Notes: generated from the letters alone by a model not told the origin. A DNA stretch of 14,014 nucleotides from Candidatus Electronema aureum (GCA_004284765.1 NQJD01000049.1:1-14014); one strand, 5' to 3'; positions 5,789 through 13,868 are shown, counted from the stretch's first letter. Numbers and translations: made by a program.

Positions 5789-7939
5789 TCACGTCTCCGC
5801 CATCGGCAAAGTGATGGTGAAGGCGGCTCCGGTTCTGCCATCATCAACGTTGCGCACGCTGACCTTGCCGCCGTGGTGTTCCATGATAGTGCGGACGATA
5901 TACAGCCCTAAGCCCATGTGCGGGCGGTCATCCTTCAAAGGTCGGTGTGAAATCATGGAGTTGAAAATCTGCTGCTGCATGGTTGGCTCAATCAAAGGCC
6001 CTTGATTGAGCACTTGCAGCGACACGGTGTCCGCCTGTTCCTCTAACTTCAGCTCCACCGGGGTACCAGAAACATGGAAAGAAACCGCATTTTCCACAAG
6101 TTTATCTAATGCCTGATGCAGACGAACTGGGTCTCCCATAACCATGACCTCTTGTTCTGGCGGCTGATAAACAAAATCCGTCCCGCTGAAGGCTAACTGC
6201 CAGCCGTGTTCAAGCCACATGGATACCGCTTTTCCTAAATCTAACAGCTCCATACTGTCTAAGAGTAGCGCGTTTTTCAAGCTGGCGGCTTCGCGAATAG
6301 AGGTCAGCAGCCCCTCTAACCGCTGCACATCCCGTTCAGCCCAGCGGATGTACTCCATGATTTGTTTCGACGGACTTTCCTGTTGCCGGAGTTGTTCTTG
6401 CTTGAGATTTTTCAGCGAGGCTGCAACCCCAGCCAGCGGGGTACGCATCTCATGCTCCAAGTTGTCGGCCATCCTCTCGCGATGCTCAATTTGCTGTCGA
6501 AGTTGCTTCAGCATCGCATCTAACGTCCGCCCCAGATCACCGATCTCGTCTTCAGCCTGATTTATTGTAATGGTACTGTGGATGTGACCGTCTGGAGTGA
6601 TGGCTGAGGCGGCCTGATCGCGCAGCTGCCGAATCCGACCTGATAGCCGATAAGCAAAAAGAAAAAAGATACCGCCGCCGAAAAAAAAGGCCAGCACAGA
6701 CAGCGTGATGGTTTCTTCGATCATCCGGTTGCTTAGAGCAAGAATGGAGTTAGTGGTTTGCTCCACCACCACAGCGGCGATGACCTTGCCGCCCTCATAC
6801 AATGGGGTGATAGCAGTCATCACCTCCGCCTGTCCGTCCTCCATCAGGTAATTGGTAATGGAATGTTTTCCGCCTAATCCTTCTTTAATGCCCTGTAAAT
6901 CCAGCGCAGTGGGTTGTGATATCTGTTCTTGGATTTCAGCAGTGAACGATGTGGTGAAAAAACGATAAAGTGGCTGAAATAACTCGCTGGCTCGGCGCAT
7001 GAGCTTGGCAAACTGATCCGCGTCCGCCGGAAGGCTTTCTGGCTTGCGCAAACTACCCACTTGTGCCCTGATCCGCTGATTCTGATCAACTACCCGAATC
7101 CGGGCGTATGGTCGGTCAAGCGAGCGGAGGATTTCCTCAATCGGCTCAGAGGTGCTGAGTAGCCAGCCCGGCTCTTGATTTTCCGCCAGATTAGCAGTAC
7201 CGATCAGTACCCTGACGCTCCGCTCTTGATCATCATCAACATCAGCCACCGTAAAGGCGAGCTTACTCCCTAGGAGTTCCAGCGGAATGCGTAATTCTAA
7301 AATATAACCGCTCTCGTTCTGCTTCCAAGCACCATGAATACGCTGTTCGCTGACCGGAAATTTGATTGGGTTGTCCGGCATTAAGAAACCGTTGACCCAA
7401 CCTGGTTCATACGGAGCGATCAGATATTTGCGCTGTCCCTGCTGATCTTCAATGACTATCTGAAGATGATCAGAGCGATCAAGGCGGAGCGAATTACGAC
7501 TACGGTAGATCACTTGATCATCTTGTACTTCAAAAAAAGCGTAGAGGTGCTTGTCCTGTTTGCCGACTAAATGACGAAAACTGAGTGTTTGCGGCAAATA
7601 AGATTCTTGTGAACTGAGCAAATGTTCTTTACCGAATTGTTCAGCCTGAGTCAATTCTGGCTGCCAATCCTCAAGACTGCCGTCTAAGCGAATGATATTA
7701 GAAAGCTGAAAAAGATAAAGATCGCGGTTTTGGTTAAGAGCATGAAACTGTTCCCGATTAAAGAGGTCACTGCGGTTAGTCAGAGCAGCGGCGACCGCTT
7801 GAGCAGTAAAATTCAGCGTGTCTTTCTGGCTGATAATCAAGCTGTTTTTCAGCGTGCTATTCAGGCGCATTCCCAACAGGGGAAAAAGCAGCAGCAGCAG
7901 CGAGAGCAAGGCTAACTTGAGGCGAAGGGAAAAGTGCAT
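5789..7939 (-). CDS. Membrane sensor histidine kinase with a large periplasmic sensor domain
   Basis: TM1 is aa 9-24. The periplasmic region spans about aa 25-408. TM2 is ITLSVLAFFFGGGIFFLFAY. A HAMP-like linker precedes the H-box LEHEMRTPLAGV (His about aa 496), the N-box LVENAVSF and the G-box MGLGLYIVRTIMEHHGG. The periplasmic part shows a CBM9/DOMON-like pattern: IRLDGSLEDW, LYAFFEVQDD, DHLQIVIE, GYILELRIPLELLG. Confidence 0.9.
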   Translation of the reverse strand: MHFSLRLKLALLSLLLLLFPLLGMRLNSTLKNSLIISQKDTLNFTAQAVAAALTNRSDLFNREQFHALNQNRDLYLFQLSNIIRLDGSLEDWQPELTQAEQFGKEHLLSSQESYLPQTLSFRHLVGKQDKHLYAFFEVQDDQVIYRSRNSLRLDRSDHLQIVIEDQQGQRKYLIAPYEPGWVNGFLMPDNPIKFPVSEQRIHGAWKQNESGYILELRIPLELLGSKLAFTVADVDDDQERSVRVLIGTANLAENQEPGWLLSTSEPIEEILRSLDRPYARIRVVDQNQRIRAQVGSLRKPESLPADADQFAKLMRRASELFQPLYRFFTTSFTAEIQEQISQPTALDLQGIKEGLGGKHSITNYLMEDGQAEVMTAITPLYEGGKVIAAVVVEQTTNSILALSNRMIEETITLSVLAFFFGGGIFFLFAYRLSGRIRQLRDQAASAITPDGHIHSTITINQAEDEIGDLGRTLDAMLKQLRQQIEHRERMADNLEHEMRTPLAGVAASLKNLKQEQLRQQESPSKQIMEYIRWAERDVQRLEGLLTSIREAASLKNALLLDSMELLDLGKAVSMWLEHGWQLAFSGTDFVYQPPEQEVMVMGDPVRLHQALDKLVENAVSFHVSGTPVELKLEEQADTVSLQVLNQGPLIEPTMQQQIFNSMISHRPLKDDRPHMGLGLYIVRTIMEHHGGKVSVRNVDDGRTGAAFTITLPMAET

Positions 7940-7987
7940 GATTTGTTAAGAGAGAACCGTCGAATTTAAAAAATATCGTCGAGCTGC

Positions 7988-8025
7988 TTGATATATACTG
8001 CGTTGTTGTTAATGTGTAAACACAT
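7988..8025 (+). promoter_or_regulatory. Putative promoter with overlapping palindromic operator upstream of the TerB-TerD-vWA cluster
   Basis: TTGATA (7988-7993), a 16-nt spacer, then TAATGT (8010-8015). The perfect palindrome ATGTGT-aa-ACACAT (8012-8025) overlaps the -10 element. Confidence 0.35.
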
Positions 8026-8122: not shown

Positions 8123-8818
8123 ATGGCTGGAAAAAACTGGAGTCAGACCGGCGAAGGGCTTGTTAATTCGTCTGCTGATTTTATCAGTGGCGTTGGATCA
8201 GCGTTTAAAGGCGTAGGTAACCGTTTTAAGAGAAGTAAATTCACTCCATTTGTTGAGGCACTGTGCGCAGTGGTCGGCGATGTTGCGTCGCAAAATGGTC
8301 GGTTACAAAAAAAGGAACTTGAAGAATTTCGCAAATTTTTATTGCAAAATTGCCGCGACACTCCTATTTTGGAATTGTTCAAATTAGACGAGTTAGTAAA
8401 AAAGGTAGAGAGTTACGCTGTGTCAGCTTTTCTTTGTGATGAGGAAGCCATCCTGATGGCTGTGAGGAAAGTTGACGATCCAGAATTGGCCAAATTAGTT
8501 ATACTCTCCGCCGTGGCAGTTGCTTTTGCAGACGGAGATTGCGACTCCAAAGAGCGATCCTGCATAGAACGCCACGCAGGTACGTTACAAATTAATTTAT
8601 CCTCGATAGTTGGCCAATTTCAGGTAGAATTGGGCAGCCCGCAAACACCACAGGCTATTTCATCGCCCGCACCTCCAGTGCGGCCTGTTATGCCGCCCCC
8701 GCCGACTCCGGTTTTGAATGATCGGCAAGCAGCTTCTCCGGCAGGCGATCCCTGCCCGATGTGCAAAGGTGCGGGCGGAAATTGCGTATTTTGTAAGGGA
8801 ACCGGTAGGAAACGTTGA
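8123..8818 (+). CDS. TerB-fold protein with a Pro-rich linker and a C-terminal DnaJ-type CxxCxGxG zinc finger
   Basis: A strong SD (GAGGAGG) lies 8 nt upstream. The helical TerB-like core has a degenerate first and a clear second ADG-x3-E motif (VASQNGRLQKKELEEF and VAFADGDCDSKERSCIERHAGTLQINL). The linker reads SPAPPVRPVMPPPPTP. The C-terminus is CPMCKGAGGNCVFCKGTGRKR. Confidence 0.7.
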   Translation: MAGKNWSQTGEGLVNSSADFISGVGSAFKGVGNRFKRSKFTPFVEALCAVVGDVASQNGRLQKKELEEFRKFLLQNCRDTPILELFKLDELVKKVESYAVSAFLCDEEAILMAVRKVDDPELAKLVILSAVAVAFADGDCDSKERSCIERHAGTLQINLSSIVGQFQVELGSPQTPQAISSPAPPVRPVMPPPPTPVLNDRQAASPAGDPCPMCKGAGGNCVFCKGTGRKR

Positions 8819-8858
8819 ACAACGCATCGTGAACCAGAACACTTAAAAGGAGAATAAC

Positions 8859-9437
8859 ATGGGTGTATCATTAAGCAAAGGCGGCAATATTTCTTTGAGC
8901 AAAGAAGTCCCTGGCTTGGAAGCCATTAAGATCGGCTGCGGCTGGGATGCGCAGGCGTTGAGCGGTGCCGCGTTTGATCTGGATGCTTCAGTTTTTCTTT
9001 GCGGCGCGGACGGAAAAGTCACCAAAGAAGCGGACTTTGTTTTTTATGGTAATTTACAGGGCGCGGGCGGTGCTGTTGTTCACGCCGGGGATAGTCGGAC
9101 CGGTGAGGGCGGAGGTGATGACGAACTCATCATGGTATCACTCAAGAATATGCCGCCGGAATTAGTCAAAGCCGCAGTTGTTGTCACCATTCATGAGGCA
9201 GTGAGTCGAGGTCAGAATTTCGGCATGGTTGAGAATGCCTATATTCGTATCATTAATGCGGTTAATGACGTGGAGATCGCTCGCTATGATCTGACTGAGG
9301 ACTACTCTGGCGAGACTGCAGTTATTTTCGGCGAGGTTTATCTGAAATCCGGCGAATGGAAGTTCAAGGCTGTAGGGCAAGGATCGACTGAAGGTCTGGC
9401 ACAGATTTGCGCCAAGTTTGGTGTAAGTGCCTCTTGA
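8859..9437 (+). CDS. terD: TerD-family stress protein (Ca2+-binding TerD/TerE/TerZ fold), 192 aa
   Basis: The N-terminus is canonical: MGVSLSKGGNISLSK. Other family blocks are FDLDASVFL, the Ca-binding loop GDSRTGEGGGDDE, and the C-terminal SGEWKFKAVGQG. The SD AAGGAG lies upstream. Confidence 0.92.
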   Translation: MGVSLSKGGNISLSKEVPGLEAIKIGCGWDAQALSGAAFDLDASVFLCGADGKVTKEADFVFYGNLQGAGGAVVHAGDSRTGEGGGDDELIMVSLKNMPPELVKAAVVVTIHEAVSRGQNFGMVENAYIRIINAVNDVEIARYDLTEDYSGETAVIFGEVYLKSGEWKFKAVGQGSTEGLAQICAKFGVSAS

Positions 9438-9457
9438 TCGTTTTTTTATCAATCACA

Positions 9458-9496
9458 GGGGACAGGCTCATGCGGCATGTCCCCTTTTTCTCTTTT
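9458..9496 (+). terminator. Intrinsic terminator or attenuator between terD and the vWA gene
   Basis: GGGGACAgGC, loop tcatgcg, GCaTGTCCCC (9 bp paired with one G/A mismatch), followed directly by TTTTTCTCTTTT. The vWA gene's SD (AGGAGG, 9499-9504) begins right after the T-tract. Confidence 0.6.
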
Positions 9497-9509
9497 GCAG
9501 GAGGAAGTA

Positions 9510-10286
9510 ATGGCTATTAAGTTGAGAAAGCAGGATGAGGTCGCAGCACGAACAATTGATCTTCGGAAAAAAGTCTCCTTGGTAAAACAGCAGGTAGGAT
9601 TGTTGGCGCAGCCTGCGCAGGTTGAGTTTGTGCTGGATATTTCCGGTTCGTTTGCAGGATGTTATCACGACAACATTATTCAGGATATTGTCGAGCGACT
9701 GGCTCCAGTTGCCTTAGAATTTGATGATGACGGAACCATGCCGGTCACGCTTTTTGGGGTGGATGCTCATCAAGCCCCGGAGATCACGCAAGCCAATCTC
9801 TGTGACTATGTCAACCGCGAGGTAGTGAAGAAATATCCCTTTGAAGGCGGAACGCAGTATGCCAAGCCACTGTGGAATATTGTTCAGCGGCATTTTGGTG
9901 CAGCTGTCCAAGAAGTAACCGTTGATGAAGGCAGCTGGTTTAAAAAGAAAAAAACGGAAACCAGAATCATCCAGCAGCCTGTTGCCAACCTGCCTGTTTT
10001 TGTGCAATTCATCACTGATGGCGACAATCAGGATCGCGAAGAAACGGAACATCTCCTGCGCATGATGGAAGTTTTGCCGATTTTTATTCAGTTTGTTGGA
10101 GTGGGCAATGCCTCTTTTGCTTTTCTGCGTAAGTTAGATGAAATGAACAGGGCGTTCATGGACAATGCTGGCTTTTTTCAAGTGATAGATATTGTGAACG
10201 CATCAGATGAGCAGCTTTACAAAGACATGCTGCATGAGTTCCCTGCTTGGCTGAAAAAGGCCAAAGCCAAAGGTTTGATTCGTTAA
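9510..10286 (+). CDS. vWA domain protein of the TerF-C-terminal type, with a complete MIDAS
   Basis: MIDAS residues are present: VLDISGS (DxSxS), GGTQYA (Thr) and ITDGDN (Asp). Blocks typical of the vWA-TerF-like family are FDDDGTMPVTLFG, PIFIQFVGVG, FAFLRKLDEM, DNAGFF and LYKDMLHEFPAWLKKAKAKGLI. ATG 9510 has an ideal SD; the track's ATG 9477 lies inside the terminator stem. Confidence 0.8.
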   Translation: MAIKLRKQDEVAARTIDLRKKVSLVKQQVGLLAQPAQVEFVLDISGSFAGCYHDNIIQDIVERLAPVALEFDDDGTMPVTLFGVDAHQAPEITQANLCDYVNREVVKKYPFEGGTQYAKPLWNIVQRHFGAAVQEVTVDEGSWFKKKKTETRIIQQPVANLPVFVQFITDGDNQDREETEHLLRMMEVLPIFIQFVGVGNASFAFLRKLDEMNRAFMDNAGFFQVIDIVNASDEQLYKDMLHEFPAWLKKAKAKGLIR

Positions 10287-11140: not shown

Positions 11141-11144
11141 TTTG

Positions 11145-11581
11145 TCATGGTGAAGCAGCGGGTTGTTCAAAAGGGTTAATCAGCTCAATGCCGCACATGA
11201 TAAAATCACGGATGTTCCGGGTTGCCAGAGCCAGACGGTTGACGTGAGCAACAGCAGCAATCTGCCCGTCTGGAAGACTCATAGGACAGCCTTTTTCTTT
11301 GCATATTCCCATGAATTCCGCATAGGCGCGGGCTGCCGCCTCATCAAAATCAAGGATGCGTCCAGAAAAGCCTTGGGCGACAAATGCTTCAAAACGTGTC
11401 TCAAGCTGCCGCCGCCGTTGACCAACCGGCAGAACACGCAGGCCATAACAGATTTCTGCAATGGTGATGCTGGAGATGAAAAGGCTGCCGCTGTTCTGCT
11501 GATTCAGCCAGTGCAAGACGTTTTCGGCTGGCTTTGGGCGCGCATGACCTCCGAAACTACATTGGTGTCCAGAAGAAGCAT
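11145..11581 (-). pseudogene. vapC: PIN-domain toxin (VapC/FitB-like) interrupted by a 1-nt frameshift in a C-run
   Basis: The ATG at 11581 overlaps the antitoxin stop (TAATG) and reads MLLLDTNVVSEVMRAQSQPKTSCTG*. The rest of the PIN domain (PKPAENVLHWLNQQ...ISSITIAEI...LDFDEAAA...PDGQIAAVA...ATRNIRDF...INPF) is in another frame. Adding one C at the CCC run (plus-strand GGG, 11536-11538) restores a 145-aa PIN protein. Confidence 0.7.
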
Positions 11582-11841
11582 TAACCAAGCTCCAGTGGCT
11601 GATGCGGAGTATGCTCCGGCAGTTCCAATTCAACTCCGGCATCAGGGCCAAAGCATTGCAAAGCAAGATCGCCTAAACGCAGCTGCAAGATATGCCCGCT
11701 GTCAGCTTGCTGTTCCGCACTGGCATCATCGCGAAAAATCAGCGCATTGAGCAGATCAAGGACGCGTTTTGTCAGCTGCGCGCTTTTCAGCGTATATTCA
11801 ATGTGAATTTGCTGAGGTATCCGAATAGTAATGTCGCCCAT
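11581..11841 (-). CDS. Putative RHH-type antitoxin (FitA/VapB-like), 86 aa
   Basis: It sits immediately 5' of the PIN gene with an overlapping stop/start. The N-terminal strand-helix pattern (ITIRIPQQIH...LKSAQLTKRVLDLLNALI) resembles FitA-type RHH antitoxins. The C-terminal tail GVELELPEHTPHQPLEL resembles their toxin-binding tails. Confidence 0.55.
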   Translation of the reverse strand: MGDITIRIPQQIHIEYTLKSAQLTKRVLDLLNALIFRDDASAEQQADSGHILQLRLGDLALQCFGPDAGVELELPEHTPHQPLELG

Positions 11842-13868
11842 CAGTTTTCCTTTGGATTGAATTTGGCAGTGTTCTCGGCCAGCTTCTCCTCCAGCCGCTC
11901 AATCGTCCACTCCAACCGTTCTTGAATTGCCCTTTCTTGGCCGGGAATTTGGCAGGGTTTGAGCTTGGCGAGGATGTCTTCCAGCTTGGCCAGATCAGCG
12001 GCTGTGCCGGTGTATTCTAGATTCCACAGAGCAAGGTCAATAGCTTGAAAGGCGGTGTAGGGGAAGGGCGAAGGCAGCTTGTCCGGGTCGAAGTCTTGGT
12101 GGACGTGGATGATTTTGCCAATCAGGTCAGCGTCGGCCTTGCCAGCCAAGGCGCGGACAGCCGCCAAGCGCACATAATGCAGCGGATGGCCGAGCAGCGC
12201 AATCCCGCGCTCTGCCGGGGCGATGCGGGCCAGCGCGTTGCCGAGCAGGTATTCCCAATGCTCTTTGGGCCAAGTTTTGTCCTCCTGCTTCAGCTCGTTC
12301 TGTTCCGTTTTTTGCCGCTCTTCGCGCCACGCCGCCTTTTCCTGCTCCAGCTCCTTCAGCTCGTTTTCCACGTAATTTTTGGCGGCGGGATATTCCATAC
12401 GGCCAAGCCAGTGCAGGCAGCGGTAGCGCAGCGAATCATCCTTCTTTTTGTCCAGCTTGGCCAAAAAATCAAAGAGTTCTTGCCCGTATCTCCCGGCTGC
12501 GCCCAAGGCATCAAGGGCTGCTTGCCGGGCAGCAAAGTCTTTCTGCTCGGCAGAAACCAGCGTGATCAAAGCCGCATGGACTTTCTGCTCAACACCAGGC
12601 AGCTCGGCAGGATTTTTCTCCCCTTGAAACGAAACAAGCTGGCCAAGTGCCTTGATAGCAGCCCGCCGCAGCTGGACATTCGGCTGATTGAGCAAAGCCA
12701 GCAGCGGTTCCGGCTTGATCCATTCAGGATGCAGCTCGGCAAGAAGCCCTGTCTGCCGAACCGCTTCCTCTTTCACTTCACGGTTTGGATCATTGATGAG
12801 CTGAACAAGCATCTTGGCGGACTCTTCGGTGGCAATGGCGCAGAGCAGCTGGGCCGCTTGTGTTCGTTGGAAAGCATTTTGTGCAGCAAATTTCTCCTGC
12901 GCTTTGCTGAACGCCCGCTGCCGCCACGTTTCCAGCTCTGGGGCCGAAAAATTCATCTGGGCCAAGGCGAAAGCCGCTGTTCGCTGACTTTCCATATTGC
13001 CACGTTCAAGCAATTTTAATCGGATGATTTCAGGTGCGGCTTGAGTTATCCGAAGTCGCCCCAATGCGGCAACAGCGGCTGTTCTGACATCACTGTCCTT
13101 CAGCATTCCCATTAAGACAGGCAGAACCGAATTATCGCCCAAGTTACTGAGGGCTTCCGCCGCAGACTCCCGCATGTACGAATTTTGATCCGCGATGATC
13201 TTGACCAACGCAGGCACAGCCGCGCTGTCACCTAAATTGCTGAGGTATGTCCCCGCAGACTGCCGCACATTCATTTCCCTATTTGCAAGGAGTTTAAGCA
13301 GCGCAGGAGCCGCAGTCCTGTCGCCCAGCCTGCCGAGAACTGCGGCCACACTCAATTGCACGTATGGATTTTCATCCGAGAGAAACTTGACTAACTCCGG
13401 CACCGCCGAGGTGTCGCCCAAGTTGCCAAGGGCTTCCGCCGCCGCTCGCCGCACCTCCTTCTCCGCATCTGTAAGGAATTTAACCAGCTCAGGAGCAACC
13501 GATCTGTCGCCAAATCTGCCAAGAGCATCCACCGCAGACTGCCTCGCCTTTGCATTCTCATTCGTGAGGAATTTAACTAGCTCAGGAATAATCGAACTGT
13601 CGCCAAGGGTGCCAACGGTGTACGTCGCAACCCACCGCACATTCGCATTCTTATCTGCGAAGAGCTTGAACAACTCGGATGCAACCAATTTGTCGCCTAT
13701 ATTGCTGAGAGCGGCCGCCGCAGACCGCCGCACATTCGCATCAGTATCTGAGAGTAATTTAACCAGTACCGGCATGGCCGAACCGTCATTGAACTTTCCT
13801 GTAGCATATGCCGCAGACTGCCGTACATCTGCATCCTCATCTGCGAGGAGTTTGATCAGCGTCGGCAT
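11841..13868 (-). CDS. HEAT-repeat (PBS-lyase HEAT-like) protein, 675 aa as called, probably N-terminally truncated
   Basis: Eight exact-length 31-aa units follow the pattern (V/A/M)P-x-L(V/I)K(L/F)L-x-D-x-(D/N)-x-x-VR-x-SAA-x-AL-x-NLGD. A degenerate ninth unit and about 400 aa of further alpha-helical/armadillo-like sequence with a coiled-coil tail follow. The repeat homology continues upstream of the ATG (see findings). Confidence 0.85.
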   Translation of the reverse strand: MPTLIKLLADEDADVRQSAAYATGKFNDGSAMPVLVKLLSDTDANVRRSAAAALSNIGDKLVASELFKLFADKNANVRWVATYTVGTLGDSSIIPELVKFLTNENAKARQSAVDALGRFGDRSVAPELVKFLTDAEKEVRRAAAEALGNLGDTSAVPELVKFLSDENPYVQLSVAAVLGRLGDRTAAPALLKLLANREMNVRQSAGTYLSNLGDSAAVPALVKIIADQNSYMRESAAEALSNLGDNSVLPVLMGMLKDSDVRTAAVAALGRLRITQAAPEIIRLKLLERGNMESQRTAAFALAQMNFSAPELETWRQRAFSKAQEKFAAQNAFQRTQAAQLLCAIATEESAKMLVQLINDPNREVKEEAVRQTGLLAELHPEWIKPEPLLALLNQPNVQLRRAAIKALGQLVSFQGEKNPAELPGVEQKVHAALITLVSAEQKDFAARQAALDALGAAGRYGQELFDFLAKLDKKKDDSLRYRCLHWLGRMEYPAAKNYVENELKELEQEKAAWREERQKTEQNELKQEDKTWPKEHWEYLLGNALARIAPAERGIALLGHPLHYVRLAAVRALAGKADADLIGKIIHVHQDFDPDKLPSPFPYTAFQAIDLALWNLEYTGTAADLAKLEDILAKLKPCQIPGQERAIQERLEWTIERLEEKLAENTAKFNPKEN

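Follow-up and report, generated by a model that had tools for sequence, protein, structure and literature searches.

A compact cluster of three ter genes, located at positions 8123-10286 of a 14,014-nt stretch of DNA from the cable bacterium Candidatus Electronema aureum (GCA_004284765.1 NQJD01000049.1:1-14014; the whole stretch is termed the window here), encodes a TerB-fold protein with a C-terminal zinc knuckle (TerB-ZnK), a TerD protein and a von Willebrand factor A (vWA) protein of the vWA-TerF-like family. Comparison with related loci revealed that the recurrent unit is the dyad of TerB-ZnK and TerD, with vWA as an optional member and with no TerC in cis. Our reading, held with roughly even confidence, is that the locus is a TerC-independent variant of the Ter system, in which TerB-ZnK and TerD would form a Ca2+/metal-responsive, peripherally membrane-associated sensor pair that is joined by a facultative copine-type vWA adaptor. 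The complex formation, membrane localization, ligand and phenotype proposed for this module would follow from the known properties of the respective families. TerB, TerD and TerF-type vWA were known already as partners, and have been proposed to act together with TerC in membrane-linked metal-binding or ligand-sensing complexes (PMC7824862 and PMC12054061; the Ter complexes of Anantharaman, Iyer and Aravind 2012 are cited here via PMC7824862 and PMC9240799). What is new is the architecture of TerB-ZnK, the strict coupling to TerD, without TerC, that it shows in unrelated lineages (gene fusions included) and the portability of its knuckle. A literature search found no work on Ter genes in cable bacteria or on ‘vWA-TerF-like’.

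An earlier note on this DNA, made from the sequence by itself, had described three co-directional genes, each with a Shine-Dalgarno site, for a TerB with a novel-looking C-terminal extension, a 192-aa TerD with a Ca2+-binding loop and a TerF-type vWA protein with a complete metal ion-dependent adhesion site (MIDAS), in a window devoid of TerC, of additional TerD paralogues and of a TerY-type kinase or phosphatase; all of this agrees with the checks reported below. The open reading frames (ORFs), all on the plus strand, are TerB-ZnK (8123-8818; 231 aa), TerD (8859-9437; 192 aa) and vWA-TerF-like (9510-10286; 258 aa), with intergenic gaps of 40 nt (TerB-TerD) and 72 nt (TerD-vWA). Their Shine-Dalgarno sequences, positioned 7-8 nt before the starts, are GAGGAGG, AAGGAG and AGGAGG, respectively. 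The third ORF also has an in-frame upstream ATG at 9477, and the start chosen is the ATG at 9510, which AGGAGG precedes. Transmembrane segments were predicted in none of the three proteins.

The TerB domain call holds in profile hidden Markov model searches, where aa 46-158 of TerB-ZnK (8258..8596, plus strand) matched Pfam TerB (PF05099; E=1e-8; 35.9 bits against a cut-off of 24.4) and the profile of the family matched the TerB structure 2jxu in PDB (E=1e-7). A helical bundle in this region is further supported by the alignments, by the AlphaFold2 (AF2) model (mean predicted local distance difference test (pLDDT) score of 78, and >90 in the bundle) and by Foldseek, whose best matches, weak at E 0.07-0.5, include 2ou3 (deposited as a tellurite-resistance protein). 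Within the bundle, D137, G138 and E144 are invariant and lie in an acidic motif, ADGDCDxxE. N-terminal to it, AF2 models a long helix (aa 9-56), of which aa 20-37 (8180..8233, plus strand; FISGVGSAFKGVGNRFKR) are cationic and amphipathic, with a hydrophobic moment of 0.59 and a net charge of +4; the moment is 0.50-0.71 in eight other family members, and the peak window is cationic in seven of the eight. This helix is a possible peripheral membrane anchor. The earlier description of the cluster as apparently all-cytoplasmic is doubtful, since the conserved amphipathic helix suggests peripheral membrane binding. C-terminal to the bundle follows a Pro-rich disordered linker (aa 169-206; 8627..8740, plus strand; pLDDT <50), which is variable in length and sequence across the family.

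The C-terminal extension is real and consists of a C4 zinc knuckle (8753..8806, plus strand) with two CxxCxGxG units (CPMCKGAG-GN-CVFCKGTG). Its cysteines C211, C214, C221 and C224 are invariant in the alignment of cable bacteria (alignment A1), while in the wider family alignment C211 is nearly invariant and the CxxC...CxxC pattern is found in 15 of 18 sequences, usually in the format CxxCxGxG-x(0-6)-CxxCxGxG; AF2 models a compact knuckle (pLDDT ~85). The same repeat occurs in the cysteine-rich domain of DnaJ, where two CxxCxGxG units build one zinc centre, the knuckle having one predicted zinc centre instead of two. Membership of PF00684 was defined by a match above the cut-off plus four CxxCxGxG repeats with two zinc centres, yet only two repeats are present and the best score, from the tail of the homologue on the phage-like contig L005 described below, is 15 bits against a cut-off of 32.7. 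Since such matches (DnaJ_CXXCXGXG, E=0.026; Anti-TRAP, E=0.14-0.42; DUF5351) are far below the Pfam cut-offs, the relation is one of DnaJ-type resemblance and not of membership. The NCBIfam scan of the three proteins gave no informative match; for TerB-ZnK it returned a weak match to DjlA (E=0.007), which, with a TerB-like N-domain and a J domain, likewise combines a TerB fold with a DnaJ-type element, although TerB-ZnK has no J domain.

TerB-ZnK is a small, discrete and sharply separated subfamily: when 1.84 billion cluster representatives (clusters at 50% identity) were searched with its profile, 15 clusters scored E<1e-30, the next being generic TerB at 4e-12. Its members (alignments A1, A3 and A5) have in common the TerB bundle, preceded by ~45 conserved N-terminal residues and followed by the Pro-rich variable linker and the C-terminal C4 knuckle. 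Homologues of the window's TerB protein are almost all from Ca. Electronema and Ca. Electrothrix.

TerD matched PF02342 over the entire profile (1-187 of 187; E=2.8e-74; 249 bits against a cut-off of 25.3), and its PDB matches are 2kxt, the solved TerD of K. pneumoniae (E=1.8e-70; 56% identity in the alignment made here), and 3ibz (E=2.3e-63). Its loop GDSRTGEGGGDDE (aa 77-89; 9087..9125, plus strand) aligned residue for residue with GDNRTGEGDGDDE of 2kxt and fits the pattern GDN(R/L)TG(E/A)GDGDDE, so that the window's TerD has the same loop as this classical TerD. Ca2+ binding by the loop, which we take to be established by the published TerD structure, is predicted for the window's TerD by the alignment. 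Compared with the TerD domains of TerF-type fusions, TerD showed just 26-36% identity in near-full-length matches, and it is assigned to the TerD/TerE type; a ‘split TerF’ made up of TerD and vWA was accordingly rejected for the TerD half.

The vWA protein matched PF10138 (vWA-TerF-like; E=2.5e-52; 178 bits against a cut-off of 29.4). Its MIDAS is complete, with DISGS at aa 43-47 (nt 9636-9650), T115 and D170; in an alignment with 12 homologues (A2), D43, S45 and S47 are invariant, and T115 and D170 nearly so. The AF2 model is of high confidence (pLDDT 90), its top Foldseek matches are the vWA domains of RGLG1/2 and BON1 (E ~3e-9), and the vWA profile matched BON1 at E=7.5e-6. The vWA is thus copine-type, the closest fold and MIDAS being those of copines/BONZAI1 and of RGLG E3 ligases, a likeness at the level of fold or family only (14-17% identity). 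Stand-alone vWA-TerF-like proteins are widespread, and the vWA of the window, unlike classical TerF, likewise stands alone, unfused to TerD.

The genomic contexts of TerB-ZnK were compared at nine cable-bacterium loci and, outside cable bacteria, at four contigs. TerD is adjacent or fused to TerB-ZnK in 13 of the 13 distinct loci (loci with an adjacent TerD: the window, L012, L013, L001, L015, L002/L016, L017, L018, L025, L005, L022 and L023). In four Electronema species a divergent sensor histidine kinase (HK) gene adjoins TerB-TerD-vWA, E. halotolerans having an extra TerD; in Electrothrix YB6 the HK adjoins TerB-TerD without vWA, and TerB-TerD stands alone in E. gigas, in E. aarhusensis and in another Electrothrix metagenome-assembled genome (MAG). 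Electrothrix MAN1_4 probably has the triad too, its TerB (D3916_11175) and vWA (D3916_11185) being on the same 2.5-kb contig. Outside cable bacteria, the two Magnetococcales loci are arranged as TerD-TerD-TerB and TerD-TerB, both without vWA, and the phage-like contig L005 as vWA-TerB-TerD. At the fourth, an 11-kb contig without vWA, P0159 is a TerB-ZnK fused to a TerD domain that replaces the knuckle; a second, independent TerB-TerD fusion, P0200, also has the TerD domain in place of the knuckle. In total, vWA accompanies TerB-ZnK and TerD in 5 of the 13 loci and is absent from Electrothrix YB6, gigas and aarhusensis, from L018, from both Magnetococcales loci and from the fusion locus. The triad is thus conserved in the four Electronema species, probably in MAN1_4, and recurs on the unrelated L005, while what recurs more generally is the TerB-ZnK/TerD dyad, with vWA optional.

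On L005, TerD, TerB and vWA are 64, 46 and 41% identical to those of the window, respectively. In a small TerD tree, the L005 TerD branches as sister to the TerDs of cable bacteria; outside cable bacteria, no TerB or TerD is closer to that of the window than the one on L005, and the L005 vWA ranks among the nearest. This relatedness of all three proteins suggests that TerB, TerD and vWA probably moved together as one block. The region examined (L005:1-20609, of a 54.7-kb Logan contig from SRR31654895) also carries genes for ThyX, a 5′-3′ exonuclease (FEN), Tmk-like, PNK-like, DUF488 and CobA-like proteins, together with many ORFans, a run of small leucine-rich-repeat proteins and a 1642-aa Kelch protein. 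The search of these neighbours against PHROGs yielded nucleotide-metabolism matches only, with no structural phage genes in the 20.6 kb examined, and the label ‘phage-like’ is therefore provisional.

That the knuckle behaves like a portable module can be seen in E. halotolerans, where a 729-bp segment (L001:10602-11330) comprising the 3′ part of terB that encodes the knuckle, the spacer and the whole of terD was duplicated directly, at 94% identity, to the 3′ end of the vWA gene (L001:12183-12911), which gave rise to a second TerD (TerD2) and to an in-frame Pro-rich linker and knuckle on vWA. A vWA-knuckle fusion is also found in P0036, from a JGI metagenome. The knuckle is thus accepted on TerB as well as on vWA, in line with a general handle for docking or targeting.

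In the six-frame translation of the window, phmmer searches with TerC and TerD detected no TerC and no further TerD, TerB or vWA, and no TerY-type kinase or phosphatase was among the Pfam matches of the window. TerC was likewise absent within 7-10 kb (or to the end of shorter contigs) at all 13 TerB-ZnK loci. The cluster is consequently distinct from a classical ter operon, having no TerC and a single TerD in place of multiple paralogues; the second TerD of E. halotolerans is the recent, 94%-identical duplicate. The same three families, TerB, TerD and TerF-type vWA, are found in classical terZABCDEF (IncHI2 R478/pMER610/E. coli O157/Klebsiella), and the idea of a metal-binding, membrane-proximal complex fits the window locus as well. 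However, unlike classical ter, the window lacks in cis TerC, the TerA/Z/E/F paralogues, TelA and the phosphoribosyltransferase (PRTase)/lyase/HAD biosynthetic module, and its TerB, which has an N-terminal helix and a C-terminal C4 knuckle, is of a separate subfamily.

A mechanism for the TerC-independent variant can be proposed. The amphipathic helix of TerB-ZnK would lie at the inner face of the membrane and provide the anchoring for which classical systems use TerC, TerB-ZnK would bind TerD, and Ca2+/divalent-metal occupancy of TerD and of the acidic site of TerB (ADGDxDxxE) would switch the state of the complex, with the tethered zinc knuckle as a putative docking or oligomerization handle. 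In Electronema, metal-dependent clamping of a partner's acidic residue by the vWA MIDAS might build a larger sub-membrane assembly. The likely role would be the sensing or buffering of divalent-cation or envelope stress, and not tellurite detoxification as such.

Several observations weigh against this reading. The amphipathic helix was modelled by AF2 with low confidence (block-mean pLDDT of ~50 over aa 1-30), and its hydrophobic-moment analysis is only suggestive; zinc binding by the knuckle is predicted from its cysteine pattern, with Pfam matches below threshold. Moreover, neither the Magnetococcales TerD of L023 nor the TerD domain in P0159 matched the Ca2+-loop pattern, so that some members of the dyad may not bind Ca2+. 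The vWA is missing from most contexts of the TerB-ZnK family, and its role therefore cannot be essential to the core. Finally, TerC-family genes are widespread in bacteria, and a TerC-family protein encoded elsewhere in the cable-bacterium genome could be the partner.

The last point also favours the strongest alternative, in which the cluster would be no more than the soluble part of a common Ter system whose TerC-family protein, and perhaps TelA, is encoded elsewhere in the chromosome, the ‘minimal module’ then reflecting gene dispersal. Three of the closest non-cable relatives of vWA (~40% identity) reside in TerC-bearing ter loci, namely L020 (vWA-TerB-TerDx4-TerC-lyase-PRTase), L010 of Cohnella (vWA-TerDx3-TerC-lyase-PRTase-StiP) and L019 of Patescibacteria (TerC-vWA-vWA). 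The report of TerC-TerB and TerC-TerD pairs as the functional core units (PMC12054061) points in the same direction. We consider this alternative possible but doubtful, as no TerC was found in cis at any of the 13 TerB-ZnK loci, which represent at least three lineages, as the TerB-ZnK subfamily possesses a putative membrane-binding helix of its own, and as the 20.6 kb of L005 that were examined contain the triad but no TerC.

The TerC-bearing loci are informative about origin as well. In the Firmicute-type full ter operons (L020 and the Cohnella locus L010), vWA shares an insert with the cable-bacterial vWA, and the gene order vWA-TerB-TerD is common to L020 and L005. Unlike the window, these operons continue with three to four TerD paralogues, TerC, a C-C bond lyase, PRTase and StiP, and the TerB of L020, at just 151 aa, is, judged by its length, too short for both extensions of TerB-ZnK. 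The position of the vWA relatives at the head of full ter operons suggests that the compact module derived from the head of such an operon. The earlier note had counted it against a self-contained module if homologues of the three genes normally sat in full ter loci, and this is partly the case, for vWA (L020, L010 and L019). Remoter vWA relatives are solitary (Competibacteraceae) or occur with a second, divergent vWA (Desulfobacterales). In the two Desulfobacterales MAGs concerned (L006:7159-8499 and L007:5494-6834), the vWA-TerF-like gene follows that of a very divergent vWA (195 aa; Pfam VWA E=1e-4); this vWA-vWA pair has no Ter partners, and the island harbours IS1, TnpB-like, resolvase, Mrr-like and RelB/YafQ genes.

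A role in conflict, as had been suggested from the sequence, would make the cluster an anti-phage or inter-element module that senses Ca2+/metal flux on infection and exerts a block at the membrane. Classical ter loci inhibit phages, and phage resistance drops when terC is deleted (PMC12054061); Ter genes are also found in jumbo phages, with superinfection exclusion as their proposed role (PMC7824862). The phage-like L005, furthermore, unites a close relative of vWA with the TerB and TerD that are nearest to those of the window outside cable bacteria, with ThyX, FEN, Tmk-like and PNK-like genes nearby. Yet no defence family in PADLOC-DB v2 matched any of the three proteins at E<=0.01, and searches of IMG/VR and GenBank phages with TerB-ZnK found no relatives, a marginal match in a Salmonella phage (E=8e-4) aside. 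The neighbours in cable bacteria and Magnetococcales are mostly housekeeping genes (DnaJ, SSB, GlyS, DsrC, SurA, SspB, RadA, PurF and NusA), and the genes are present in both genera of cable bacteria with partly conserved synteny, unlike patchy defence islands, while the adjacent VapBC pair is an unrelated strain-specific insertion. The conflict role is thus left without support, and we regard the anti-phage explanation as quite unlikely.

Selection bears on the remaining alternative. The window is 93% identical in DNA to a contig of Ca. Electronema nielsenii F5, and pairwise dN/dS (omega) is 0.03-0.08 for all three genes, with dS up to saturation and the neighbouring HK in a similar range; the genes are therefore kept by selection and are no operon debris. 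That the cluster is what remains of a larger ter operon in decay, without a function of its own, is hardly credible. In favour of it, vWA-TerB-TerD heads a full ter operon in L020, and the presence of vWA and of TerD2 varies among cable bacteria; yet it is effectively refuted by the omega values, the genes are kept in two genera, and their ORFs, Shine-Dalgarno sites and metal-binding motifs show no damage. Purifying selection, the conserved block, its recurrence in L005 and the lack of TerC within ~10 kb thus argue that the locus is not a decayed terZABCDEF fragment. The earlier claim of a module rather than an operon fragment is supported to this extent, with the TerC-containing loci of the close vWA relatives standing on the other side.

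The TerC-independent reading can be taken one step further, into an autonomous inner-membrane Ca2+ switch made of TerB-ZnK and TerD with an optional vWA, that is, a bacterial ‘split copine’. In such a switch TerD would supply the Ca2+-binding sandwich and the TerB-ZnK helix the anchor; the knuckle would serve as a portable handle for docking, and vWA as an effector adaptor that depends on its MIDAS. By analogy, a Ca2+-binding beta-sandwich (TerD) plus vWA would parallel the C2-C2-vWA layout of copines. Copines differ, however, in that TerD is no C2 domain, in that the parts in the window are separate polypeptides and in that no lipid binding is known for them. This extended form is put forward as unlikely; it might also link the module to the strong Ca2+/metal and pH excursions that cable and magnetotactic bacteria meet at redox interfaces. 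If it were true, the locus would be the smallest soluble Ter system, and TerB/TerD function would be directly testable in vitro; if TerC acts in trans instead, the locus would merely represent an unusual gene arrangement plus a new TerB subfamily.

Classical ter operons are large, paralogue-rich and TerC-centred, which is one reason why it is still unresolved how Ter systems (tellurite, phage and colicin resistance, metal stress) work; ter genes are induced by Zn/Mn (PMC12054061). A naturally reduced, soluble version of two or three proteins is a simpler object for the biochemistry and structure of TerB, TerD and vWA. Its candidacy rests on strong selection, the Rosetta-stone TerB-TerD fusion, a built-in putative membrane anchor and the portable zinc knuckle, and it draws attention to a conserved module for stress or ion sensing, so far unstudied, that cable bacteria share with Magnetococcales.

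Candidate expression signals were found on both sides of the dyad. The divergent intergenic region between the HK gene and terB contains a promoter-like block of ~40 nt (7985..8024, plus strand), with TTGATA-N16-TAATGT followed by TGTAAACAC. In its general form the block reads TTGATA-N16-TAAnnT and then TGTAAAcAC, and it contains the palindromic ATGTGTAAACACAT. Its TTGAT.TATACT and TGTAAA elements are invariant from Electronema through Electrothrix YB6 (alignment A6), the remainder of the spacer being unalignable. A consensus promoter scan did not call this block; it looks like the promoter of the operon and is possibly a shared promoter or operator, a role and direction read from its conservation and motifs. 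An upstream riboswitch was rejected, as the Rfam scan upstream of the module matched no family, yybP-ykoY included.

Between TerD and vWA, a GC-rich, terminator/attenuator-like hairpin (9457..9496, plus strand) is followed by a U-run, UUUUUCUCUUUU, and this U-rich tail can alternatively pair with the Shine-Dalgarno sequence of vWA. The 77-nt stretch that holds the hairpin folds at −23.6 kcal/mol (z=−2.9). The hairpin occurs only in the window and F5 and is absent from Electronema KV and halotolerans; therefore it is no conserved part of the module, and its candidacy as a conserved attenuator was rejected. Species-specific attenuation of vWA expression is a possible role for it.

Upstream of the module, the HK gene (5789..7939, minus strand) encodes HAMP, HisKA and HATPase_c domains and scored 538 bits, under the cutoff of 612, with TIGR03785 (the kinase of a ‘proteobacterial dedicated sortase system’). 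It adjoins TerB divergently in five of the nine cable-bacterium loci (the four Electronema species and Electrothrix YB6, not the other Electrothrix), and the kinase that the earlier note had called an orphan is hence a conserved neighbour, taken here as context whose link to the module is one of adjacency. A weak CBM9-like match was found at its aa 128-242, and no response regulator adjoins it.

As for the other flanking features named earlier, the toxin-antitoxin pair is present, whereas insertion-sequence debris was rejected, with no transposase domain in the scanned ORFs. A PIN/VapC gene and a small upstream ORF (a putative antitoxin without Pfam match) lie in a 744-bp insertion at 11141-11884, which takes the place of 71 bp of F5, between a LivG-like ATPase gene and a HEAT-repeat gene. 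This cassette is a strain-level toxin-antitoxin insertion polymorphism, unrelated to the module. At 11841-13868 (minus strand), the window encodes a 675-aa HEAT/PBS-lyase-repeat protein, whose PADLOC match to HEAT-ARM_XIII (E=3e-31) probably reflects repeat similarity only. Near the start of the window, the ORFs at 728-1489 and 1362-2111 overlap, with no significant Pfam match or a weak one to a BcrAD/BadFG-type ATPase. The surrounding segment (700-2100) has a G+C content of 0.61-0.63, compared with 0.44-0.55 elsewhere in the window, and is conserved in F5.

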